64,000 nt of DNA from positions 11,285 to 75,284 of IMG/VR virus record IMGVR_UViG_3300002220_000029, one strand, 5' to 3'. The notes under the pieces were generated by a model. That model saw only the letters and a list, made by a program, of their open reading frames with translations. It did no database searches and had not been told where the DNA came from. The translations under genes were made by a program, and so were the position numbers. Below, one piece after another: positions 11,018 through 46,180 of the stretch; within the stretch, counting starts at the first letter, position 1, and each line of letters starts with the position of its first letter. This stretch comes from a virus. Lineage: Duplodnaviria; Caudoviricetes.

Positions 11018-11910
11018 AATTGATACCACCAATCACGATAACGGATGTTGAGTTTCATGATTCAACTATCACAGAGCCCAGTGTGGACGAATTAGCTGAC
11101 GTCAATTACAGAGGCGAGTGGAATGCTGGTGTGACTTATACTGTAAATGCTCTTGTTATTGTTGTGGCTGATCATAAAAGGTATATCTCATTACAAAATG
11201 GCAATGTTGGCTACACCCCAGGTGGAGCTGGCAACGAGGCATGGTGGTCAGATGATGGATATACGGATCGTTGGAAGGTATTTGATGCTGTTGTTGGTTC
11301 ACAGGCAACATTAACATCAGCCATCACATATGAATTAGATCCAGGACCAATTGACAGTGTTGCTCTTTTGAATATTGAGGCAGGAACAACTACAGTTACA
11401 ATGACAGATGTTGGTGGTGCAGGGGATCCTATTATTTGGACAGAAACAACAAAGGTTGATGGAATGCTCGTTTCTGATGTTGCCTATACAGATTTTCCTT
11501 TGACATATTTGACACCACACATTGTGATTGAATTGTCTATTCCAGCAACGGGTGATTCTGTTAAAATAGGAGAAATCATTGTTGGGCAGAAGGAATCTTT
11601 GGGCAACACAAAGTATATACCATCGGTTGGTATTACTGATTATAGCATCAAAGAGGTTGATGATTTTGGAAATTATACAGTGTTGGAAAGAGCATATTCG
11701 AAAAGGCTTTCATGCGCCACCAATATCTTAAATACACAGTTGGATGCTGTTTATAATGTTCTTGCCTCTTACCGAGCGCAGCCTGTGGTGTGGATTGGCC
11801 ATGAAGACTATGCCAGTATGATCGTTTATGGTTTTTATAAAGATTTTAGTATTGAGATTGCTTATTTGAAATATAGCGTATGCACATTGGAGATTGAGGG
11901 TCTTGTTTAA
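11014..11910 (+). CDS. tail tip protein (Dit-like) with small carbohydrate-binding-like insert
   Basis: Immediately after the tape measure (ATGA overlap); WNAGVTYTVNALV CBM5/12-like motif; paralogous to the next gene. Confidence 0.6.
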   Translation: MKLIPPITITDVEFHDSTITEPSVDELADVNYRGEWNAGVTYTVNALVIVVADHKRYISLQNGNVGYTPGGAGNEAWWSDDGYTDRWKVFDAVVGSQATLTSAITYELDPGPIDSVALLNIEAGTTTVTMTDVGGAGDPIIWTETTKVDGMLVSDVAYTDFPLTYLTPHIVIELSIPATGDSVKIGEIIVGQKESLGNTKYIPSVGITDYSIKEVDDFGNYTVLERAYSKRLSCATNILNTQLDAVYNVLASYRAQPVVWIGHEDYASMIVYGFYKDFSIEIAYLKYSVCTLEIEGLV

Positions 11911-34398: not shown

Positions 34399-34872
34399 AT
34401 GTTAGTGGATGTAAAAGAAATTAAATTTAAAGAGTTAGCAGCGGCAGTGAAGGTCTTAAATGATAGTGGATTGTTGGTTAAAACAATCGCCACAGTTGGC
34501 GTGACCAAAGAAGCTATCGTTAAGGCTTTTGTTGAAGGCGTTCAGTCGGTTCCCGATGACCAGGATGGAAATTGGACTGGTCCAGAAGAAGTGGCCGATT
34601 ATTACAGTAAGATTGTGATTCCTGATCCTGGAATCGAGACGGGCAAGAAAGAGAAAGTTCCAAAAGAAAAGAAAGAGAAAGTTCCAAAACAGAAAGGAGA
34701 GAAGAGTAAATCTTCGTTGGAAGTAATGAAAGAGCTTATTGCCAACAAAGCTTCCGATGCCGAGATTACCAAGGTGTTCACAGAGAAGTTGACCAAGAAG
34801 GATCCGAAACTTTCGGCAGATTTCATTGCCAAGAGAATCAAGATTTACAAAGGTTTAGCTGCAAAAGGGTAA
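34399..34872 (+). CDS. hypothetical Lys-rich protein
   Basis: AAGGAG RBS; KKEKVPK direct repeat. Confidence 0.6.
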   Translation: MLVDVKEIKFKELAAAVKVLNDSGLLVKTIATVGVTKEAIVKAFVEGVQSVPDDQDGNWTGPEEVADYYSKIVIPDPGIETGKKEKVPKEKKEKVPKQKGEKSKSSLEVMKELIANKASDAEITKVFTEKLTKKDPKLSADFIAKRIKIYKGLAAKG

Positions 34873-34948: not shown

Positions 34949-35326
34949 ATGATTTCAATCTGTAGACGTTTCGAATTTCATGCTGCTCATTATCTTCCGA
35001 ATCATGAAGGAAAATGTAAAGATATTCATGGTCATTCATACATTCTGGAAGTAGAAGTGATAGGAATGATTCACACTGAAGGTCCCGCTACTGGGATGAT
35101 TATGGATTTTAGCAAGTTAAAGAAGATTGTTCATGATTCTGTTTTAGAGAAGATTGATCATAAGAATTTGAATGATATCTGGGATAATCCAACTGCCGAG
35201 AATATGGTCGTGGATATCTCCCGTTGGATTGAGCCACATCTGCCCGGATGGGTTACGGTTAATAGAATTCGTTTATGGGAAACCAGTAATTCTTACGCAG
35301 AATGGAGGATAGAATGGGGTCAGTGA
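34949..35326 (+). CDS. queD: 6-carboxytetrahydropterin synthase
   Basis: FEFHAAHYLP..EGKCKDIHGHSY, MIMDFS, DH..LN, PTAEN, WET. Confidence 0.92.
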   Translation: MISICRRFEFHAAHYLPNHEGKCKDIHGHSYILEVEVIGMIHTEGPATGMIMDFSKLKKIVHDSVLEKIDHKNLNDIWDNPTAENMVVDISRWIEPHLPGWVTVNRIRLWETSNSYAEWRIEWGQ

Positions 35327-35751
35327 AATCAAAAGAACAAATCGGGCCAAAGCTTTTTATCAATGGTATTGAATTGTCAGATCGTTGTCCTCATGAAATA
35401 GTAGAAATATTATTTTTGTGTATCAATTTTACATACTCATCTCTTGAGGCGATCCGAGCAAATCTGGAAGAATTGTTTGCTATGGCTGATGAATATTTAA
35501 TCGACAGAAGGAAGTGGTCTGCTGATAAAAAAGATCGAACCGACTGCTCCCGCCTCTTGAGACAGATCAATATTTGGAAAGTGAAATGGAAGAGATTACC
35601 TAAAGAAGGTTTGATGAGTGCTTACTGGGATTTTATTTTGAGGAATCAAAAGCTTGCGTTGTTACCTGGATTTGGTGTGGCTACCAATTTTGGTGATGTA
35701 TTGAGAGTCAATCCCGAAAAGACGTCGCTTCATTCTATGGTTAAAACCTAA
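35314..35751 (+). CDS. hypothetical protein within the deazaguanine cluster
   Basis: GGAGG RBS before ATG 35314; between queD and queE. Confidence 0.55.
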   Translation: MGSVKSKEQIGPKLFINGIELSDRCPHEIVEILFLCINFTYSSLEAIRANLEELFAMADEYLIDRRKWSADKKDRTDCSRLLRQINIWKVKWKRLPKEGLMSAYWDFILRNQKLALLPGFGVATNFGDVLRVNPEKTSLHSMVKT

Positions 35752-35764
35752 TAGGAGAAATGGT

Positions 35765-36421
35765 ATGAAAATTCATTCTATTTTCAAATCAATCAACGGT
35801 GAAATTTGTTCAGAGCACCAAGGCAGTCTAACAGCCTTTGTTCGTACTTTTGGCTGTAACAGTCGGTGTAGTTATTGCGACACACCATACAGTTACGCAG
35901 AAGGAGGAACTTATTCTGAGATGACTGTCAATCAAATTGTCCAAGAGGTTCTTGATTTGGCGGTTAAGAATGTTACCATAACAGGTGGAGAACCATTATT
36001 GCAAAAAGGAACCATCAATCTTATCAAACAGCTTAAATTGAAACGCCTTCATGTGTCTGTTGAAACAAATGGATCAAAGTTTATACCTAAGATAGAAGGC
36101 GTATCGTGGGTGGCAGATTATAAATTGCCATCTTCTGGTGCTGGACATTTGATGAGAATCAAGAATTACATCAATCTGTCCAGTCGTGATTATGTAAAGT
36201 TTGTCGTGTCAGATAGGCACGATTTTGATACAGCTCTCGAAATCATTCTCAGTATTTTTGTTGTGGTGAATTTCCTTGCAAGACCTAAATTTGCATTTTC
36301 TCCTGTATGGGGATCTCTGGCTCCAGAGACTCTTGCACAATGGATGATTGATAGTGAGTTTTTGTGTCGTCTTGGAGCTATTTATAATCTACAGATTCAT
36401 AAGATCTTGAAGGTATTATAA
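35765..36421 (+). CDS. queE: 7-carboxy-7-deazaguanine synthase (radical SAM)
   Basis: IFKSINGE, FVRTFGCNSRCSYCDTPY, TITGGEPLLQ, VETNGS, LQIHKIL. Confidence 0.92.
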   Translation: MKIHSIFKSINGEICSEHQGSLTAFVRTFGCNSRCSYCDTPYSYAEGGTYSEMTVNQIVQEVLDLAVKNVTITGGEPLLQKGTINLIKQLKLKRLHVSVETNGSKFIPKIEGVSWVADYKLPSSGAGHLMRIKNYINLSSRDYVKFVVSDRHDFDTALEIILSIFVVVNFLARPKFAFSPVWGSLAPETLAQWMIDSEFLCRLGAIYNLQIHKILKVL

Positions 36422-36483: not shown

Positions 36484-37068
36484 ATGTTGAAAAAATCTCG
36501 AGAAGTCGTCCAGGCAGAACAGAATGTTAGAGAGCTTTTAGCCTTCATTGGGGAAGATCCTGATCGCCCAGGGTTAGTAGATACCCCCAGTCGTGTGGTT
36601 AAAATGTATCAAGAATTTTTCTGCGGGTATGACCGTAAAAGGCGGCCCAAGATGACCATATTCAAAAATCAAGACGACGGGATCATTTATAATGATATGA
36701 TCTTAGATTCTGGTTTTTTCTTTTCTTGTTGTGAACATCATATGGCAATTTTTTTTGGTAGTTTTCATTGTGCATATATCCCTGATAAACATATCATTGG
36801 ATTGAGCAAGATAGACCGAATTGTTGATTATTATTCGGGTAGGCTTCAAGTGGCGGAGCGGTTGGTGCACCAAATTGTGGATGATTTACAGGAGGTATTA
36901 AATCCAAAAGGCCTTATTCTGGTTATGAATGCCCGTCATCTTTGTAAGGAAATGCGTGGAGTCAAAAAAATTAACAGTCCTGCAGAAGTGATTGCTGTCA
37001 GAGGCGCTTTTGCTACAAATCTTAATGGATGTAAAGACGAATTCATGTCCAGAATTCAAGGGAGGTAA
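36484..37068 (+). CDS. folE: GTP cyclohydrolase I
   Basis: GEDPDRPGLVDTPSRV, SCCEHH, GLSK..R, RLQVAERL, ARHLCKEMRG. Confidence 0.95.
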   Translation: MLKKSREVVQAEQNVRELLAFIGEDPDRPGLVDTPSRVVKMYQEFFCGYDRKRRPKMTIFKNQDDGIIYNDMILDSGFFFSCCEHHMAIFFGSFHCAYIPDKHIIGLSKIDRIVDYYSGRLQVAERLVHQIVDDLQEVLNPKGLILVMNARHLCKEMRGVKKINSPAEVIAVRGAFATNLNGCKDEFMSRIQGR

Positions 37069-37070
37069 CT

Positions 37071-37418
37071 ATGGACCAGATAGTAGCAAATTACAAAAGA
37101 TTCATCGTAATCAGGACCAGCTTTGAGGCGTTGCATCGTTGGCCCGAATGTCCTTTTGAGGACGTTTCTTTTCTAAGGGATGCTCATCGTCATATTTTTC
37201 ATGTGGAAGTTCAGGTGGAGACTTCAATGGATCGGCAGATTGAATTTATCAGATTCAAACGCAAGGTAGACAAGTATATCAAGAAGGAGTTCGCAGGGAA
37301 GAATCTGGGATCTCTTTCTTGCGAAGCGATTGCCGAAGTCCTGTGCTACCGCATGGATGCTAAACGGGTATCGGTTTTTGAGGACAATGAAAATGGGGCG
37401 ATTTATGAAAGGGCATGA
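37071..37418 (+). CDS. QueD-paralog T-fold protein with LxxxHRHxF motif (DpdL-like CDG decarboxylase candidate)
   Basis: HRWP...LRDAHRHIFHV...DRQIEF...SCE..A...V.V.EDNENGA. Confidence 0.65.
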   Translation: MDQIVANYKRFIVIRTSFEALHRWPECPFEDVSFLRDAHRHIFHVEVQVETSMDRQIEFIRFKRKVDKYIKKEFAGKNLGSLSCEAIAEVLCYRMDAKRVSVFEDNENGAIYERA

Positions 37419-38712
37419 TTTTGTAATAATTGATCCATCCAGTCCTGAATTCAACAGAGGTTCATTCTGCTATCTTCCCTTCATTTTATTTTCCGCACTA
37501 AAGGCTCAAGGAATAGATGTAATTCTGTTAGAAGATTTTTCTTGTGCTGATATCGATACAGTGCCAGAGGCCAACAATTATTTGGTAGGTCTTTGGTCAT
37601 ATCCTCAGATTGATGCTTGTTTGGTTTTGAATAGATTTTTGCCCAAGAAACCATTGTTCTTTGGCTATTATCCACTTATTCGCGACTTGAAATTAGGCGA
37701 ATATCTTGTAAGTAATATGCAGATTGAAATAGGGATAGTCAACTATGTCCAGTATTATGAAGGATTTGAAAGGATCTTGTTGTCTGATTGTGACATGCAT
37801 TTGACCAAATATGAAGGGACAGTTTATCCTTTATTTACTTCATATGGTTGCAACAATCGTTGCAAATTCTGTCCAGTATCTGTCAATTGTAACAGTCATC
37901 GCGTAGTAGTGCCTCTTGAAAGCGTGCGAATGGTTTTGGATTTTTGTGGTAGTAAAGGTTATAAAAATATTCATTTCACTGATGAGGATTTCTTTTTTGA
38001 TATTGATCGGGCCGAGCAGATTTTGAGATATACTCAAGGTAAAGATTTTAATTATATTGCTCTGGGAAGTGTTTATACTGTATCTAAATTCATTGAGAAA
38101 TTTGGCACTGATATTTTTGACGAGACTGGAATGCGGCTGATTGAGATCGGGCTGGAGACGGCTGATTCTGTATTAAATAAAAAGATGGGCAAGGGAGGAC
38201 GAGATAAATATTCTGCTTTAGCAGAGCAGACTAAAGGCAAGGTCGATATTTTTTGGCTTACCATGACTTTCTTTCCTGGGGAAACCATTGCTACATTACG
38301 TTCGACAGGATTATTTTTGGAAAAGTATGGGTTTCAATTAGAGGAATTGTATGGTAGGATTCAGACCAATTCCACGTCAGGCGGGTTAGGCCAGTTTTAT
38401 CAATCTTACATTGGGACACCAGAAAATGAAAATATTGAAGACAAAGGCATAGTTTTGTCTGAGAGGCCAGTGAGACTGATCCCCAGTTTTGTACCGTATA
38501 CTTTTTTGGGATGTCGAATTACGAAATGGCGAATGATCAGGGAAGATGAAAAGAAGTGGTTTGAGTTGTATAGGATTCCTGAAAAGCTGGTCCATGTAAA
38601 AATTTCTTTGAATACCATTGCACAAACTATCGAAATGTTAAAAGGCATATATAATGTAAATGACATTGTAACTTTTTTAGCTATCTCAGCCCGTTTAGGA
38701 GTTATTGAATGA
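37405..38712 (+). CDS. radical SAM enzyme with N-terminal Rossmann/B12-binding-like domain
   Basis: TSYGCNNRCKFC (CxxxCxxC), HFTDEDFF, IGLETAD, FFPGET. Confidence 0.8.
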   Translation: MKGHDFVIIDPSSPEFNRGSFCYLPFILFSALKAQGIDVILLEDFSCADIDTVPEANNYLVGLWSYPQIDACLVLNRFLPKKPLFFGYYPLIRDLKLGEYLVSNMQIEIGIVNYVQYYEGFERILLSDCDMHLTKYEGTVYPLFTSYGCNNRCKFCPVSVNCNSHRVVVPLESVRMVLDFCGSKGYKNIHFTDEDFFFDIDRAEQILRYTQGKDFNYIALGSVYTVSKFIEKFGTDIFDETGMRLIEIGLETADSVLNKKMGKGGRDKYSALAEQTKGKVDIFWLTMTFFPGETIATLRSTGLFLEKYGFQLEELYGRIQTNSTSGGLGQFYQSYIGTPENENIEDKGIVLSERPVRLIPSFVPYTFLGCRITKWRMIREDEKKWFELYRIPEKLVHVKISLNTIAQTIEMLKGIYNVNDIVTFLAISARLGVIE

Positions 38713-39710
38713 GAATAATTAATGTGCCAATTGAAAGTTTGGAAGAACGTTATTCTGCTCAATGGAATAAATGGTTCCCAGAAGCCTTTACCGATATGAG
38801 AATCAATTTTGTTAACATCTATCCCGATACGCTCTCTGACCATATTAAGGATGGTTCTTTCTTAGATGTTTGTGGCACCAATTATTTTAAGGCTGGCCAA
38901 TTAAAAATATTGACCAAAATGTTATTCCAAGACGAGATTGAGAAGGATGATGTTATCTTTTTTCATGATCTTTGGTGTCCAGGCATAGAAATGCTTCAAT
39001 ACATCAGACAAGGAAAGAAATTGAATTTTAAGATCTGTGGCATTCTCCATGCAGGGACGTATGATCCTTACGATTTCCTGGCCAAACAAGGCATGGCTTC
39101 TTGGGGTGGTCCTCTTGAAGAAGTTTGGTTTAGTTTTATTGATCAAATCTATGTGGCAACAGAATTTCATAAAAATCTTATTTGGCATAAAAGAAAAATT
39201 GATTTTGATAAGATCAAAGTGACAGGATTACCAATTTACAATAATCAATATCCTGATATGATGAGGAAAGAAAATATTGTTGTATTCCCTCACAGGCTTG
39301 ATTCGGAGAAGAATCCACAGTTGTTTGATCGATTGTCAATCGATGCAACTACAGAAGGTTGGCAATTTATTAAAACCAAAGAAGTGTGTAAGACAAAAAA
39401 AGATTACTTTAAACTTTTGAACCGGGCTAAAATAGCAGTGTCATTCGCTGATCAGGAAACATGGGGCATTGCTCAGCAAGAGGCGTTATTTGCTAAATGT
39501 TTTCCTGTAGTGCCTAATCGGCTCAGTTATTCAGAAATGTATAGAAGGAGTTTTAGATATTCTTCTTTTGAAGAGGCTGTTCATTTGGTCAAGAAATTGA
39601 TGGAGCCTAACAGCGAAGATTTTGATCAACTATCTTATAATAGAGATGAGTTGCTCAGACGTGGCGATTTAGCTATACTAAACATTGTAAATGAAATGGA
39701 GAAATTATGA
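38709..39710 (+). CDS. GT-B glycosyltransferase, GTDC1/QTMAN-like
   Basis: FPHRLDSEKNP...KKDYFKLL.RA...S.A.QETWGIAQQEA...CFPVVPNRLSYSE. Confidence 0.8.
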   Translation: MRIINVPIESLEERYSAQWNKWFPEAFTDMRINFVNIYPDTLSDHIKDGSFLDVCGTNYFKAGQLKILTKMLFQDEIEKDDVIFFHDLWCPGIEMLQYIRQGKKLNFKICGILHAGTYDPYDFLAKQGMASWGGPLEEVWFSFIDQIYVATEFHKNLIWHKRKIDFDKIKVTGLPIYNNQYPDMMRKENIVVFPHRLDSEKNPQLFDRLSIDATTEGWQFIKTKEVCKTKKDYFKLLNRAKIAVSFADQETWGIAQQEALFAKCFPVVPNRLSYSEMYRRSFRYSSFEEAVHLVKKLMEPNSEDFDQLSYNRDELLRRGDLAILNIVNEMEKL

Positions 39711-40702
39711 ATCTGATGTTGGACAGTGGTTCGCCAAGCCTTTACAACACCTTGGTTAGAAAAAAGAAAACCAAAGGTATCATGGGGGCTTTTCTAAAAG
39801 ATAGAGTAGAATTTGATAATGAAGGAAAAAGGGTTAGTGCTGATACATTCGAATTTTTAGAAACAGAGAAGTATTTGATATACAAAGAGGAATACATTGC
39901 CTTCCTTTTGAAAAATCAGCAGTATTTTGATGTCTATGTAAATCTCGATATCATTAACAATGCACAGGCGACTTGGGATAATCAACAAGAGATGGAGTCT
40001 TATGGGCTGAAGCCTATTCCAGTATTTCATTTTGGGTCTGACATAAAGTGGTTGCATATGTATCTTGAGAAGGGCTACAAGTATATTGCTATGGGAGGCT
40101 TCATTCCAAACCCCGTAGCGGTGTTACAGCCAATTTTAGATGATCTGTGGGCGAATATTTTATGCGATAAAGAAGGGATTCCAAAGGTAAAGGTCCACGG
40201 TTTTGCTGTTACGTCGGCCAGGCTTGTTGCTCGTTATCCGTGGTGGAGTGTTGATAGTACCAGTTGGGCCAAGATTGGAATTTATGGAGCCATTACTGTT
40301 CCAAGGCATAAAAATGGTCAGTGGGTTTATGATGGTACTCCTCATGTTGTTTTTACATCCAATAAGAGCAAGGCTCAGAATGAGATTAATGGTAAACATA
40401 TCAATACTGTCACTTCTGTTGAGAGAGAATATATTTTGGCATTTCTGAAAGAAAATGGTGTTGCCTTAGGTAAGTCTTCTTTCAAAACAGAGAGTAAGTT
40501 TAGCGGGTATGTGCCAAAGGCAAATGAGCGATGGGTTGATTTGAAAACCAAAGACGAGATTGAGATTATTGAAGAGCAAGGTGTGTGCAACCAGTTTGAG
40601 TTAAGAAATAAGATCAATCTTTTATTTTTTATTAACCTTCAAAAAAATCTTCCGGAGTGGCCTTGGGCTTTCAAACGGACAGTGAAAGGATTTGGACTAT
40701 GA
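39707..40702 (+). CDS. dpdA: DpdA-like deazaguanine-DNA transglycosylase (TGT fold)
   Basis: MLDSGS, YVNLDII, IPVFH, IAMGG, VHGFAVT, SVDSTSW; context with folE/queD/queE. Confidence 0.78.
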   Translation: MNLMLDSGSPSLYNTLVRKKKTKGIMGAFLKDRVEFDNEGKRVSADTFEFLETEKYLIYKEEYIAFLLKNQQYFDVYVNLDIINNAQATWDNQQEMESYGLKPIPVFHFGSDIKWLHMYLEKGYKYIAMGGFIPNPVAVLQPILDDLWANILCDKEGIPKVKVHGFAVTSARLVARYPWWSVDSTSWAKIGIYGAITVPRHKNGQWVYDGTPHVVFTSNKSKAQNEINGKHINTVTSVEREYILAFLKENGVALGKSSFKTESKFSGYVPKANERWVDLKTKDEIEIIEEQGVCNQFELRNKINLLFFINLQKNLPEWPWAFKRTVKGFGL

Positions 40703-41950: not shown

Positions 41951-44900
41951 ATGGAATTTTGTCATCTCCACGTTCATACAGAAAATTCGCTTTTAGATGG
42001 ATATGGTAGCGCTAAACAGTATCTGTCTAAAGCTAAGGAGTTGGGGTTTCAATATCTTGCTTGTACTGATCATGGGAATCAAGATGGGTTAATTAAGTTT
42101 CAAAGAGAGGCAGAGAAACAAGGCATTAAATCTATCTTAGGCTGTGAATTATATATTGTGCCAGATGCCTCTATCAAAGTGCCTAAAGAATTTAGATTTC
42201 ATGTAACCGTGTTAGTTAAAGATAATGATGGTTGGCATAACCTTTGTAAAATATTGACAGAAGCGAATCTGCATGGTTTTTACTATAAGCCAAGGGCAGA
42301 TTTTGATATGTTGAAAAAATATAGTAAAGGATTAGTTTTTTTGAGTGGCTGTACCGCCACTGTTTTGACATCTAAGATTGGTCAGGATTTCTTTTGGGAG
42401 TTAAATGTCCTGTGTCCTGGCGATTGTTACTTAGAAGTTATGCCTCATCTGTTTGATGATCAGATGGAAGTCAATAAGATTTGTTGTGAATATGGGTTGC
42501 CATTGGTAGCAACAAATGATTGTCATTATGTCAATGAAGATGATGGTATGGTGCATGAAGTGTTGTTGGCTATTCAAACTAAAGCTAAGTGGTCTGATAG
42601 TTCGCGTTTTCGTTTTGAAACCAGAGGTTTGTTTCTCCGTTCATCTCAAGAGATGAAAGAAGCTTTTAAACTTCAAGATGTTTTAACTAAATCTCAATAT
42701 CTTTTGGCAATGAGGAACACAGTTGAGATTGCCGAGAAGTGTTCTGATTTTAAGATCCAAAAACAAGATATCTTTTTACCTTCCATATTACAGAAAGGCG
42801 AGTCTGAAAATCTTTTTCTTCGGACACTTTGCGAGAAAGGATACAGAAAAATATTTGGCGAATTGATCGAGAATGATTCTATTTATTATGATCGTTTCCT
42901 TGAAGAGTTTAACATGATCAAAAAGAAAAAGTTCATTCGATATTTTCTGGTCGTTTGGGAGCTTACTGAATGGTGTAAAAAGAACAATATTATGATTGGA
43001 CCAGGCCGGGGTTCTGTGGGCGGCAGTCTTATTGCTTATTTGATTGGTATTACTTCTGTTGATCCAATCAAATATAATTTATTATTTTCTCGTTTCATTG
43101 CAGAAGATCGAATTGATTATCCGGATATTGATTTGGACTTTGAGGATGTTAAAAGACCACTGATCAGAGGTCATCTTGAAGAGATGTATGGTAAAAATAA
43201 TATTGCCAGTGTGTCTACTTTTATGGATATGAAGGGAAGAGCGGCAATACGTGATGTTGCAAGGGTTTTTGAGATACCGTATGGCGAAGTAGATGAGTTT
43301 GCTAAATTTATTGAAGATGAAAATGGTGATGGCAGTTCTATTGAAACAGCAGCAAGTGATCATTGGTTTTCTCAAAAGTATCCTGAGGCTGTAAAAATTG
43401 CCATTAGATTAGAAGGACAGACGAGAGGTGTTGGCCAGCATGCCGCTGCTCTTATTGTGTCTGCTGATGATCTTACGCAAGGAGCCAGGTGTAATCTTTC
43501 TGTTCGATCAAATCAAGAGGTTGTTAACTGGGATAAAGATGATGCCGAATATGTAGGCCTTATGAAATTAGATGTTTTAGGTCTTAATACATTGTCTATT
43601 TTAAATGAAACCAAAAGGCTGGTAAAGGAGAATCATAACAAGGAAATTGTTTTTGAGAAAATCACATTAGATAATCCTCAAGTTTTTGATATGCTGTCAA
43701 AAGGACAAACAGTAGGTGTTTTTCAATTTAATACTTGGCCAACAACTAAGCTTTGTAAAGAGGTTGGTGTTGATAGTTTTGGTTTAATGAGCGATGTCGT
43801 CGCTTTAGTTAGGCCTGGTCCTGCCGACAGTGGGATGACTGCCGATTTTATTAAAAGGAAGCATGGAAAGAAGTGGCTAAAGAAACACAGGATTTATGAA
43901 CAGATCACACGAGATACTTTTGGTATCATTATTTATCAAGAACAAGTAATGCAAGTTATCAGCGAAGTGGCCGGATTGCCATATTCGACGGCTGATAAGA
44001 TTAGGAAGATTATTGCAAAGAAAAGAGATGTCAAAGAATTTGAAAAATATAGAGAAATGTTTGTTGATGGCTGTGAAAAAAAAGAGACCTTATCTGAAAA
44101 GGAAGCCTTGGAATTCTGGGAAGCTCTTGAGAAACATGCAAGTTACAGTTTTAATCGTTGTTTGGCGGGAGATACAGTTGTTAACCGAGCATCAGCTGGA
44201 AGATTTTGCGGGTTAGATGTTACATTGAAAGATTTATATGAAAGTCGGTATTCGAAAACGAGTACAGGCGATAAACTTCGCTGTAGAGGATTGCATCTTC
44301 TTCAATGGAAAGAGTTAGATTCTCGTATTCATACAGGGAAAATGACAAATATCTATGATAGTGGAGTTCAAGAAGTTTGGTTAATTTGTTTAGAATCGGG
44401 GAATTCAATCAAGGCAACAGACCAACATCGTTTTTTGGCCAAGAGAAGAGAAAAAAATTTATATGTCAAAGTATGTGATTTGAAAATTGGTGATTTGTTA
44501 GCTATTAAAGGCCCCAGAGTAAAGGAAATAATCAAAGCTGCTCTTGATAGTAGACCTTTGAAAACAACATATCGTGGTAGAGGGTTTCAAAAAGGAGAGG
44601 ATAATGTAGGATACATTGATGGAAGAGGAAAATTTCTAAAACCGGCAAGGATAAAGGTTTCTTTAAGAGCGCGCGGCAGATGTGAGGAATGCGGGAAGGA
44701 AATAGAAAAAGAATGCGAATCATGTCATCAGAAAGTAAAAATAGGAAGACCCGAATTTGCTCATGTCAAACTTTTAGATGAACTGAATTATGACCATGAA
44801 TTATACCATTCTCTTGAAAATATAATGTATCTTTGTAATTCATGCCACAAGAAAAAAGATTATGAAAAAGGAGAAAGGAAGGTAAGACATTCGGTGGGGA

Positions 44901-46180
44901 GAATAATAGAATATTCTCCTATCAAATCTATCAAATACGTTGGAAAAGAACAGACATATGATGTTGAAATGGAAGATCCACATAATTTTATTGCCAATGG
45001 TTTTGTAAGCCATAATTCTCACAGCGTCGAGTATTCTATGATAGCATATTGGTGTGCATTTTGTAAGTTGTATTTTCCAGCTGAGTTTTTGTGCGCTAAT
45101 TTATCATATGGATCAGATGGCAAAAAAGAAGAATTGGTCAAAGAGGCAAGGCGGTTAGGCTTGAATATTGTTCTGCCAAAGATTGGTGTTTCTGATGCTC
45201 ATAAATGGGTTGTTAAAGATGGCAAGTTATATGTTCCTTTCATTGAGATAAAAGGTGTAGGCGAAAAAGTGGCTTTAGAACTTTTGAAGTATCGTCCTCC
45301 GGAGCCACAAGAAGTAGTATTACATCAACAAAGTAAGCCAAGGCAACGAGGTTTTTTTGATTTAAAGCAGGAAGAACCTAAAACAGTGTTAAAAGAGGTA
45401 AAAGAAAAAAAGATAGATAAATTATTAAAGGCCATTGGAGCGATTGGCAATAATCCAGAAGAAGATTTGTCAAAGTATTTTTCTTTTGATATGAGTGTTG
45501 ATAAACGGGACGAATTTCCTAATCTACGCCAATGTCTTGGCTTTAGTTTTCCTCCTAAGGATCTTGAAGCCATGTTGAGTTTAGAATTGCCTGTAGGCTA
45601 TATTCGAGGAAAGATTCATACTTCTAAATTCCAAAATCCAGAGCTTTTGTATTGCCAGGATTGTGATCTTGTAAAACAGTGTAAAAGACCAGTATTACCT
45701 TCGTCGGGAAGGTACAATCTTGCTATTGTTGGCGAGGCTCCTGGGCCGAATGAGGATAAACAAGGAGAAGGATTTGTTGGACGCGCTGGCGATTTGGTTT
45801 GGAAAGAGTTAGGCCAATATGGTCTTATACGCAGGTTTTTTCATGTAACGAATTGTGTTAAATGTTATCCTGGCGAGATTAAGACTCCGGCTGTAAGACA
45901 TTTAACAGCTTGTAAGAAATGGCTTGATGAAGAGATCAAACAAGCTGAGATAAAATTATCATTGGTATTTGGAAATACGGGGTTAAAATATTTTAAGGGA
46001 GAGGATGGCGGTATTACCAAATACAGTGGCAAGGCAGAATGGCTTGAGAATTATGGCATGTGGGCTTGCTGGTGTGTTCATCCTGCTTCGGTATTGAGAG
46101 ATCCTAAAAATAAGGATGATTTTCAATCAGGGATTGCAAACTTTGTGGAAAAAATAAATGTTCTGGGAGGATTGAAATAA
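41951..46180 (+). CDS. dnaE: DNA polymerase III alpha (DnaE) with intein and C-terminal family-4 uracil-DNA glycosylase domain
   Basis: PHP HLHVHTE..TDHG; GPGRGSVGGS; YPDIDLDF; KLDVLGL; FNR|intein|SHS; C-terminal VGEAPG.NED..GEGFVG.AG, TNCVKC, HPA. Confidence 0.93.
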   Translation: MEFCHLHVHTENSLLDGYGSAKQYLSKAKELGFQYLACTDHGNQDGLIKFQREAEKQGIKSILGCELYIVPDASIKVPKEFRFHVTVLVKDNDGWHNLCKILTEANLHGFYYKPRADFDMLKKYSKGLVFLSGCTATVLTSKIGQDFFWELNVLCPGDCYLEVMPHLFDDQMEVNKICCEYGLPLVATNDCHYVNEDDGMVHEVLLAIQTKAKWSDSSRFRFETRGLFLRSSQEMKEAFKLQDVLTKSQYLLAMRNTVEIAEKCSDFKIQKQDIFLPSILQKGESENLFLRTLCEKGYRKIFGELIENDSIYYDRFLEEFNMIKKKKFIRYFLVVWELTEWCKKNNIMIGPGRGSVGGSLIAYLIGITSVDPIKYNLLFSRFIAEDRIDYPDIDLDFEDVKRPLIRGHLEEMYGKNNIASVSTFMDMKGRAAIRDVARVFEIPYGEVDEFAKFIEDENGDGSSIETAASDHWFSQKYPEAVKIAIRLEGQTRGVGQHAAALIVSADDLTQGARCNLSVRSNQEVVNWDKDDAEYVGLMKLDVLGLNTLSILNETKRLVKENHNKEIVFEKITLDNPQVFDMLSKGQTVGVFQFNTWPTTKLCKEVGVDSFGLMSDVVALVRPGPADSGMTADFIKRKHGKKWLKKHRIYEQITRDTFGIIIYQEQVMQVISEVAGLPYSTADKIRKIIAKKRDVKEFEKYREMFVDGCEKKETLSEKEALEFWEALEKHASYSFNRCLAGDTVVNRASAGRFCGLDVTLKDLYESRYSKTSTGDKLRCRGLHLLQWKELDSRIHTGKMTNIYDSGVQEVWLICLESGNSIKATDQHRFLAKRREKNLYVKVCDLKIGDLLAIKGPRVKEIIKAALDSRPLKTTYRGRGFQKGEDNVGYIDGRGKFLKPARIKVSLRARGRCEECGKEIEKECESCHQKVKIGRPEFAHVKLLDELNYDHELYHSLENIMYLCNSCHKKKDYEKGERKVRHSVGRIIEYSPIKSIKYVGKEQTYDVEMEDPHNFIANGFVSHNSHSVEYSMIAYWCAFCKLYFPAEFLCANLSYGSDGKKEELVKEARRLGLNIVLPKIGVSDAHKWVVKDGKLYVPFIEIKGVGEKVALELLKYRPPEPQEVVLHQQSKPRQRGFFDLKQEEPKTVLKEVKEKKIDKLLKAIGAIGNNPEEDLSKYFSFDMSVDKRDEFPNLRQCLGFSFPPKDLEAMLSLELPVGYIRGKIHTSKFQNPELLYCQDCDLVKQCKRPVLPSSGRYNLAIVGEAPGPNEDKQGEGFVGRAGDLVWKELGQYGLIRRFFHVTNCVKCYPGEIKTPAVRHLTACKKWLDEEIKQAEIKLSLVFGNTGLKYFKGEDGGITKYSGKAEWLENYGMWACWCVHPASVLRDPKNKDDFQSGIANFVEKINVLGGLK
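44159..45016 (+). mobile_element. intein (286 aa) with HNH-type endonuclease
   Basis: Starts CLAGDT, block B KATDQHRFL, ends TYDVEMEDPHNFIANGFVSHN with +1 Ser; interrupts FN(K/R)SH; internal CEEC...AHV...N..YLCNSCH. Confidence 0.92.

Follow-up and report, generated by a model that had tools for sequence, protein, structure and literature searches.

A QTMAN-like glycosyltransferase in a phage operon for 7-deazaguanine DNA modification, and a possible route to a sugar-bearing purine

What does a glycosyltransferase do in the middle of a phage operon for 7-deazaguanine DNA modification? The question is raised by a 64,000-nucleotide stretch of a Caudoviricetes genome (IMG/VR record IMGVR_UViG_3300002220_000029, positions 11,285 to 75,284; hereafter the window), in which a glycosyltransferase (GT) gene is wedged between the genes for a radical SAM enzyme and a DpdA-like transglycosylase. 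To our knowledge, the side chains on the published phage 7-deazaguanine DNA bases are all small (cyano, amido, aminomethyl, methyl or formyl derivatives, carboxy) or absent, and the known DNA sugars are all attached to hydroxymethyl pyrimidines. We found no description in the literature of a sugar-bearing purine in DNA, or of a GT within a DpdL/DpdA operon. An earlier note on this DNA had likened the enzyme to GTDC1/QTMAN and proposed that it glycosylates a deazaguanine in DNA. Animal QTMAN is the tRNA-queuosine mannosyltransferase; its acceptor is queuosine in tRNA and its donor GDP-mannose.

The genes of the cluster are all on the plus strand. At its head is a gene for a 157-aa protein (34399..34872); in 21 of the 88 related loci a homologue of it precedes the GT. 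Next come QueD (6-carboxy-tetrahydropterin synthase, PTPS fold; 34949..35326; PF01242, 7e-33; phrog_2389, QueD-like), with the motif CKDIHGH of the CxxxHGH type, and a 149-aa protein (35302..35751) that has homologues in 7/88 GT loci. The 157-aa protein has no match in Pfam, PHROG, NCBIfam or the PDB, and the 149-aa protein has no family match. The cluster continues with QueE (7-carboxy-7-deazaguanine (CDG) synthase, a radical SAM enzyme; 35765..36421; phrog_2076, QueE-like, 6.8e-34; PF04055, 1.8e-16), FolE (GTP cyclohydrolase I; 36484..37068; PF01227, 1e-54) and DpdL, a QueD paralogue and predicted CDG decarboxylase (37071..37418; phrog_17812, 2.2e-19). The LRDAHRHIF of this DpdL, which is homologous to DpdL of phages phiST and ACP17, fits the published signature LxxxHRHxF (PMC10516641). 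A run of overlapping genes then joins DpdL to a second radical SAM enzyme of AprD4/class-B-like architecture (37405..38712; PF04055, 2.4e-14; start at 37387, 37393 or 37405), the GT, and the DpdA-like DNA guanine transglycosylase (39707..40702; phrog_887, queuine tRNA-ribosyltransferase/DpdA type, 1.8e-40). The last is 35-39% identical in tblastn to phage DpdA annotated as '7-deazaguanosine inserting enzyme', and its nearest BLAST matches are the DpdA enzymes of 9g/CAjan-like and other siphophages; the Pfam TGT model does not match it at E<=0.01. QueC was not found in the 75-kb record, and Pfam, PHROG and NCBIfam scans showed no QueF, QueA or QueG in the cluster. The window thus has what marks a QueC-less DpdL/DpdA system: FolE, QueD and QueE, no QueC, the DpdL signature and a DpdA-family transglycosylase.

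The Cellulophaga phage phiST has FolE, QueD, QueE, DpdL and DpdA3, and its DNA carries plain dDG (Cui, Hutinet et al., 2023; PMC10516641). The window is like phiST in its QueC-less CDG pathway, in a DpdL with LxxxHRHxF and in a DpdA-family transglycosylase located in the replication module. It differs in the GT and the AprD4-like radical SAM enzyme added between DpdL and DpdA; phiST has neither, and its 7-deazaguanine is unmodified.

The GT is encoded by a stop-free reading frame of 333 aa (38709..39710, plus strand). The two strings that the earlier note had quoted from it, FPHRLDSEKNPQ and KKDYFKLLNRAKIAVSFADQETWGIAQQEALFAKCFPVVPNRLSYSE, are residues 193-204 and 230-276, and the overlap with the dpdA-like gene that it had described is there: a 4-nt ATGA at 39707-39710 holds both the DpdA-like start (39707) and the GT stop (39708-39710). 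At the 5' junction another 4-nt ATGA holds the GT start (38709) and the radical SAM stop (38710-38712), and AGGAG or GGAG lies directly upstream of the GT and DpdA-like starts. A word-indexed search returned 794 homologues at E<=1e-3, and an exhaustive profile search 651 clusters (50% identity) at E<=1e-30; the best 150 of the matches listed there all belong to the GT's own family (E <= 3e-78), so that an outgroup is not visible in that search. ESM Atlas matches were the family's own viral clusters only. The family is very large and mostly viral. The AlphaFold model is confident (pLDDT 93, pTM 0.90) and has the two Rossmann domains of a GT-B fold; with the homologues and clusters, it tells us that this is no chance ORF. 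Over 500 PDB entries match the model at E<=1e-3, the best being BshA, MshA, SenB, TarM and PglA.

Searches with the sequence were less specific. Pfam, PHROG and NCBIfam scans of the window GT gave nothing but a sub-threshold match to Pfam Glycos_transf_1 (15.9 bits; cut-off, 26.4), and PDB sequence and profile searches gave weak generic GT4 matches, with no QTMAN structure among them. Among 35 relatives, PF00534 is matched by 34 (best 8.7e-8) and PF13439 by 23. E250-x7-E258 and R196/K201 are invariant in 35/35 family members aligned; we take EX7E and the diphosphate-binding Arg/Lys pair to be GT4 donor-binding motifs. The protein is apparently an intact, soluble sugar transferase of the GT4 type, and homologues, motifs, fold model, QTMAN profile tests and tree together assign it to GT-B/GT4 with a QTMAN-like donor domain.

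How specific is the kinship with QTMAN? It was examined with bacterial PF12038 (QTMAN_N) proteins and a limited outgroup. An HMM of the phage GTs scores 62-82 bits on 23 of 24 QTMAN_N proteins and at most 18.5 bits on 25 generic GT4 proteins, and hhalign aligns the phage GT with PF12038 proteins over 168 columns (99.6%, E 1e-24). In five whole Bacteroidota genomes, reached by way of a mis-binned MAG, the QTMAN_N paralogues are the sole matches of this HMM at E<=1; genomes without PF12038 gave no matches at that threshold. A quick tree places the phage GTs and the QTMAN_N proteins as sister clades. With a bacterial PF12038 protein as its seed, a search gave bacterial members only; these read WN(H/Q)RWEYDKNPE where the earlier note has PHRWEHDK for GTDC1, and the genes flanking them are housekeeping genes and uninformative. 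Profile search and phylogeny, two of the checks that the earlier note had named, bear out the resemblance for bacterial PF12038 proteins, in the specific HMM scores and the sister clades.

The resemblance is, however, that of part of the protein. Profile tests locate it at residues ~142-305, where the N domain ends and the donor domain follows. In the acceptor domain, the part by which QTMAN_N is defined and which here takes up the first ~140 residues, no similarity to that family is detectable (hhalign probability 0.8%), and PF12038 has no match at E<=1 in any of the 35 family members, nor any match in the whole virus record. The earlier claim of a GTDC1/QTMAN-like enzyme thus stands for the donor domain and the adjoining end of the N domain, and is not supported for the rest. 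Both families are GT4 enzymes with a GT-B fold, and their donor domains have in common (F/W)xHRxxxxKxP, an EX7E inside QETWGIAxxEA or xEFFGxSxxEA, and CxPxxPNRLSYxE. Both also have a tie to 7-deazaguanine, shown for animal QTMAN and, for the phage GT, read from gene context. They differ in that the phage GT is without the QTMAN_N acceptor domain and shares an operon for DNA modification with DpdL and DpdA. The phage, having no QueC in its record, makes no queuosine, and the acceptor group of the GT must therefore differ from that of QTMAN. Judged by sequence, the donor half of the phage GT is the closest relative of the QTMAN family found here, and the kinship is specific.

The gene context is reproduced widely. 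In 82 GT loci the partners are DpdL (77/82), DpdA (71/82, typically directly downstream) and FolE (69/82), and a homologue in the same setting is conserved in the cultured phages ACP17 and PA5oct-like phages. Cultured phages with the GT include PA5oct, PAC2, Acidovorax ACP17, Xanthomonas X1/BUDD, Sinorhizobium Phosso, Burkholderia BCSR5 and Synechococcus BUCT-ZZ01. The GT is a core part of a QueC-less 7-deazaguanine DNA-modification module. It is not universal in phages with DpdL: six groups of isolated phages with DpdL have the GT and six are without it, a share that rests on isolated phages because the DpdL alignment is too variable for a scan of the collection. The decarboxylase role of DpdL is only predicted; DpdL yielded no dDG in E. 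coli, and dpdL and dpdA of ACP17 gave no product there (PMC10516641). ACP17 carries the GT, which that experiment omitted, and the missing GT may explain the lack of product. A GT for lysogenic conversion or the cell wall was also considered and rejected, given the replication-module location, the coupling to DpdA, and the DpdL and DpdA partners across very different phages.

The radical SAM enzyme whose gene overlaps both the DpdL and the GT genes has C149, C153 and C156 invariant. The best PDB neighbour of its model (pLDDT 93) is the sugar 1,2-diol dehydratase AprD4 of apramycin biosynthesis (E 8e-14, TM about 0.6), followed by TsrM, MgmA, CysS and OxsB. In AprD4 as in the window enzyme, a radical SAM barrel comes after a Rossmann-like N domain; the two are, however, only 13-14% identical, and the methylases TsrM, MgmA and CysS score nearly as well. 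Directly upstream of the GT, an AprD4-like radical SAM enzyme is found in 27 of 88 loci and a SPASM radical SAM enzyme in 31, and never the two together. Both alternative partners resemble sugar-tailoring enzymes, so that a sugar seems to be involved.

A bacterial cluster bears on the stage at which the sugar is added. The chromosome of Paenibacillus polymyxa ISL-58 has a cluster of FolE, QueD, QueE, DpdL, a SPASM radical SAM enzyme, sugar-nucleotide enzymes and a GT with 45 of the 48 family-invariant residues. This cluster, which joins CDG genes, DpdL, a SPASM enzyme and the GT, is new here. It was seen in a single genome of 301 Paenibacillaceae, and ~11 kb, with an AraC gene in between, separate its GT from DpdL. 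DpdA is missing from that genome, which has just the housekeeping tgt. A set of DpdL, SPASM enzyme and GT without DpdA suggests that the sugar is put onto a small-molecule deazapurine, before insertion by DpdA. Glycosylation of a deazaguanine in DNA, as the earlier note proposed, is thus not supported in that form.

A precedent comes from HuiG of huimycin biosynthesis, and also from the dapiramicin pathway, in which free 7-deazaguanine base is glycosylated at the 2-amino group (PMC7439116); GTs of the huimycin family are annotated with PF13439 (10.64898/2026.04.15.718813). The likeness, by description, is that FolE/QueD/QueE homologues make a base of the 7-deazaguanine type and that a GT places a sugar on this base in its free form, with N9 free in the huimycin product. 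The huimycin pathway differs in having QueC (preQ0 core) and an O-methyltransferase, and it yields a metabolite that is secreted instead of a base for DNA. The alpha- and beta-glucosyltransferases of T4 and the trypanosome base J glucosyltransferase have an analogous outcome, a sugar on a DNA base against nucleases, and differ in that their substrates are 5-hydroxymethyl pyrimidines in the polymer. None of these enzymes is among the best 50 PDB fold neighbours of the GT, and AGT and BGT gave no PDB sequence match.

We propose that the GT glycosylates a small-molecule 7-deazaguanine, that the radical SAM enzyme tailors the sugar and that DpdA inserts the base into phage DNA, an order of events to which we give about even chances. 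FolE, QueD and QueE, whose genes are present, make CDG, which DpdL would convert to the 7-deazaguanine nucleus. The GT would transfer a hexose from a host nucleotide-sugar to this nucleus while it is a free base or nucleotide, C7 being the most attractive attachment site for a major-groove DNA mark. The AprD4-like enzyme would tailor the sugar after the GT, and DpdA would swap guanine in phage DNA for the finished base, giving a sugar-bearing purine that may shield against host nucleases. The GT is placed in the pathway because of the ATGA overlaps on both sides, the co-occurrence with DpdL, DpdA and FolE, and the lack of QueC in the record; it is placed at the small-molecule stage because of the DpdA-less P. 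polymyxa cluster and the HuiG precedent. That phiST, with DpdL and DpdA and without the GT, has plain dDG also counts for a sugar step. Several points stand against the proposal. 7-Deazaguanine and CDG are without a hydroxyl of the QTMAN type, so the acceptor atom is a guess, and we know of no precedent for a C-glycoside made by a GT4 enzyme. Neither QTMAN nor the T4 glucosyltransferases work on a free base; their substrate is the polymer. DpdA, for its part, would need to take in a base made bulky by its sugar.

The order could be the reverse, DpdA inserting 7-deazaguanine or CDG and the GT then glycosylating it on the DNA polymer, where the radical SAM enzyme would tailor the sugar. QTMAN, the nearest characterised relative, is generally known to act on a base already in nucleic acid, and the GT and DpdA genes overlap and are adjacent in most loci; DpdM, moreover, methylates dPreQ1 after insertion (PMC10516641). 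We nevertheless consider this order possible rather than probable: a near-identical active-site set is retained in the DpdA-less Paenibacillus cluster, the radical SAM partners resemble small-molecule sugar enzymes, and the GT N domain is unrelated to QTMAN_N. The family's median pI of 6.0, with no obvious basic DNA-binding character, points the same way; yet QTMAN_N proteins are similar, and isoelectric point does not separate a DNA from a small-molecule substrate.

Targets outside DNA modification are less probable still. The substrate of the GT could be a pterin, or another metabolite that comes from the same GTP-derived precursors and is no deazaguanine, or else a protein or an envelope component; the place of the GT in the operon would then reflect only shared precursors or regulation. 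The GT has FolE and two proteins of PTPS fold beside it, and cyanobacterial BGluT, which glucosylates tetrahydrobiopterin, is among its many GT4 fold neighbours (5zer/5zes). BGluT ranks only 41st to 49th, however, and dozens of other GT4 enzymes are at least as near; the GT has its strongest partners in DpdL and DpdA rather than in FolE alone, and QTMAN_N proteins are the only specific cellular relatives, which together make such a target unlikely. That last kinship might instead mean that the GT is a true analogue of QTMAN, adding a sugar to queuosine in the tRNA of the host to retune translation during infection. This is the least probable reading, and very unlikely, since the GT has an acceptor domain other than QTMAN_N, since a tRNA target would not account for its tight linkage to DpdL, DpdA and CDG synthesis, and since the same GT occurs in the Paenibacillus small-molecule cluster.

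Glycosylated 7-deazaguanine in the DNA of these phages would be the first known case of a DNA purine that bears a sugar. The attachment site would be the carbon freed by DpdL, possibly through decarboxylation-coupled C-glycosylation, and the radical SAM enzyme would then remodel the sugar; the GT would share ancestry with QTMAN, and a bacterial natural-product pathway would use the same set of DpdL, radical SAM enzyme and GT. Taken jointly, these parts could as readily prove right as wrong. The system is probably widespread, judging from the 651 clusters, and cultured phages carry the GT, among them the Pseudomonas jumbo phage PA5oct, whose DNA contains a modified G of uncharacterised structure (PMC12191111). 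With the Paenibacillus cluster there is a bacterial system that is tractable, and tools for DNA labelling could be made from the enzymes. If true, glycosyl-deazaguanine would add a new class to the known hypermodifications of DNA, and one enzyme lineage would link the glycosylation of deazaguanine in DNA with that in tRNA.

The GT gene (38709-39710, translating to 333 aa) lies on the + strand, which carries nearly all genes of the window, itself 64 kb of a 75,284-bp IMG/VR virus record. It belongs to a run consisting of QueD (34949-35326), a 149-aa protein without detectable family (35302-35751, +), QueE (35765-36421), FolE (36484-37068), a QueD paralogue containing LRDAHRHIF (37071-37418), a second radical SAM enzyme (37405-38712), the GT, and a DpdA-like transglycosylase (39707-40702; phrog_887, 1.8e-40). 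The GT overlaps both of its neighbours: its start ATG shares bases with the stop codon of the radical SAM gene (GAATGAGA), and its stop codon with the ATG of the DpdA-like gene (TTATGAAT). A Shine-Dalgarno-like AGGAG or GGAG precedes both starts. LRDAHRHIF matches LxxxHRHxF, the published signature of DpdL, which is the predicted decarboxylase of 7-carboxy-7-deazaguanine (CDG) in phages that have FolE, QueD, QueE and DpdA and lack QueC (PMC10516641). No QueC domain was found in the whole 75,284-bp record.

A 157-aa protein without detectable family, encoded at 34399-34872 (+), has homologues in 21 of 88 related loci, again upstream of the GT, and may be a further pathway component. Downstream of the gene run are a sliding clamp and a DnaE-type polymerase III alpha (41951-46180, +; 1409 aa) with PHP, NTPase and finger domains. 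The polymerase also contains an intein at about residues 757-1022 and, at its C-terminus (residues 1256-1392), a uracil-DNA glycosylase (UDG) domain. In the literature, fusions of polymerase and UDG are described for A-family enzymes of T-modified phages; here the UDG sits on a C-family polymerase in a G-modifying phage.

Taken alone, the window GT matches only Glycos_transf_1 in Pfam, below threshold. Its family has 794 matches in an indexed search and 651 clusters (50% identity) at E<=1e-30 in an exhaustive one, with a viral share of 85-100% among its clusters in the Atlas; 34 of 35 aligned members match PF00534 and 23 match PF13439. The AlphaFold model (pLDDT 93) has a GT-B fold and is closest in the PDB to retaining GT4 enzymes, e.g., BshA, MshA, SenB, TarM and PglA. 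Because E250 and E258 (the EX7E pair) and likewise the pair R196/K201 do not vary in the family alignment, the enzyme looks catalytically intact. The earlier note's observation of a glycosyltransferase ORF overlapping a DpdA-like gene is confirmed.

The GT had also been likened to GTDC1/QTMAN, the tRNA-queuosine mannosyltransferase. The Pfam model of the QTMAN_N domain (PF12038) matched neither the phage record nor the 35 family members, and real PF12038 proteins, all bacterial, were therefore fetched for comparison. Of 401 Bacteroidota genomes sampled, 102 encode such proteins, frequently as two paralogues; those fetched match QTMAN_N at 2.9e-66 together with Glycos_transf_1. The genes beside them are housekeeping genes (Rrf2, EEP nuclease, MutL, DnaB); to our knowledge, glycosylated queuosine is known from eukaryotes only. 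An HMM built from 142 phage GT representatives scored 62-82 bits against 23 of 24 PF12038 proteins, compared with a maximum of 18.5 bits among 25 generic GT4 (PF13439) proteins taken from three genomes, and in the reciprocal search from the QTMAN_N side phage GTs ranked first (42-59 bits). Across five whole Bacteroidota genomes the sole matches of the phage profile at E<=1 were the two QTMAN_N paralogues; five genomes without PF12038 yielded no match except GT family members themselves. Profile-profile alignment joins the two groups over 168 columns (99.6% probability, E 1.1e-24), covering phage GT residues ~142-305, that is, the end of the N-domain and the entire donor domain. Two motifs are held in common (phage GT/QTMAN_N proteins): VVFPHRLxxEKxP/ILWNHRWEYDKNPE and YYxLLxxSKVAVSxAxQETFGIAMxEAxxxGCxPxVPDRLSYxE/YsrLLxxADixxxTSxxEFFGxSvxEAIYCGCxPLLPNRLxYPE. 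In a quick maximum-likelihood tree (short search, long branches, small outgroup) that also contained 19 generic GT4 proteins, the phage GTs and the QTMAN_N proteins each group with support 99, and a branch with support 92 unites the two to the exclusion of the generic proteins. The first ~140 residues of the GT, however, have no significant similarity to QTMAN_N in profile-profile comparison (probability 0.8%). By these comparisons, which support the earlier note's interpretation in part, the kinship to QTMAN is real and limited to the donor domain; the acceptor half, which defines QTMAN_N, differs.

Co-occurrence was counted in 80 IMG/VR loci and two isolates, many of the contigs being truncated: DpdL accompanies the GT in 77 of these 82 loci, DpdA in 71, FolE in 69, QueE in 53 and QueD in 43. 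A pared-down FolE-DpdL-GT-DpdA version also exists. Clustering of every same-strand neighbour in 88 loci placed the window-type radical SAM enzyme immediately 5' of the GT in 27 and an unrelated 303-aa SPASM radical SAM enzyme in 31, never both. The model of the window enzyme (pLDDT 93) has AprD4, a sugar 1,2-diol dehydratase, as its best PDB neighbour, ahead of TsrM, MgmA, CysS and OxsB.

The sole GT match on a long bacterial chromosome contig (805 kb) is in Paenibacillus polymyxa ISL-58, in a cluster on one strand (NZ_JAGGNR010000008, about 417.7-446 kb); 1 of 301 Paenibacillaceae genomes carries the phage-family GT. The cluster encodes QueE-like, QueD and FolE proteins, DpdL (104 bits), a SPASM radical SAM enzyme with homology to its phage counterpart (E 5e-22), two sugar nucleotidyltransferases (one ManC-like), a 4,6-dehydratase-type epimerase, nucleotide-handling enzymes, a carbamoyltransferase, a PLP decarboxylase, an ATP-grasp enzyme and three GTs. 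The one of phage family, about 11 kb from DpdL, is 40% identical to the window GT and keeps 45 of 48 family-invariant residues (43 in phage PAC2, 38 in ACP17). No DpdA was found in the ISL-58 genome, which has housekeeping tgt only. The cluster appears to be an undescribed pathway for a 7-deazapurine natural product, in which the acceptor cannot be a base put into DNA by DpdA; the set of DpdL, radical SAM and GT thus appears to work outside DNA modification as well. There is precedent in huimycin, where HuiG modifies a free 7-deazaguanine-type base with GlcNAc at the 2-amino group (PMC7439116; 10.64898/2026.04.15.718813).

These data bear on when the sugar would be added. The earlier note proposed glycosylation of deazaguanine in DNA, and the main rival reading is that the GT acts on the base after insertion, DpdA acting first. 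Glycosylation at the DNA level is unproven; attachment of the sugar may precede insertion, as the Paenibacillus cluster and the gene order suggest. Two other acceptors are unlikely: pterins, and host tRNA queuosine, which the donor-domain kinship to QTMAN brings to mind.

In the most likely pathway, with addition before insertion, CDG would be made by FolE, QueD and QueE, families for which CDG synthesis is established. DpdL would then remove or replace the carboxyl group, in line with its predicted role (PMC10516641), and the GT would transfer a hexose from a host nucleotide-sugar donor onto the deazaguanine nucleus at the small-molecule stage. The AprD4-like radical SAM enzyme, from its fold and position, could tailor the sugar, and DpdA, from its family membership, would exchange the finished base for G in DNA. 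We speculate that the most attractive attachment site is the carbon freed by decarboxylation, given the near-obligate pairing with DpdL and the absence of QueC and QueF.

Isolated phages that encode DpdL divide evenly: the GT is present in six groups and absent from six others. Homologues ~30% identical have a matching gene context in Acidovorax phage ACP17 and PA5oct-like Pseudomonas jumbo phages; further carriers of such homologues are Xanthomonas X1/BUDD, Sinorhizobium Phosso, Burkholderia BCSR5 and Synechococcus BUCT-ZZ01. In phiST, which, unlike the window, has DpdL without the GT, the DNA contains plain 7-deazaguanine (PMC10516641). In two other GT-less phages, Chryseobacterium MA9V-3 (L145, 4488-5369; 293 aa) and Vibrio Bakedbeans (L146, 4239-5390; 383 aa), DpdL homology is confined to the C-terminal portion of annotated proteins that are longer, so DpdL is fused there to another N-terminal domain. 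In PAC2, which is PA5oct-like, a 540-aa "hypothetical protein" immediately 5' of the GT (L002, 5379-7001) clusters with a 404-aa protein (L081, 3852-5066) that matches TGT (PF01702) weakly; the 540-aa protein is the probable DpdA of these jumbo phages. Genes for a phosphoribosyltransferase and an epimerase are close by. The enzyme resistance of PA5oct DNA points to a modified G of uncharacterised structure (PMC12191111). Expression of dpdL and dpdA from phiST or from ACP17 gave no 7-deazaguanine in DNA in E. coli, and other enzymes may be needed (PMC10516641); for ACP17, the GT is an obvious candidate. Full-text literature searches found no paper on glycosylated 7-deazaguanine in DNA or on a link between QTMAN and phages. 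The GT-bearing system extends the known Dpd-type deazaguanine system as a new variant, so far unpublished, and its cultured carriers make it directly testable.
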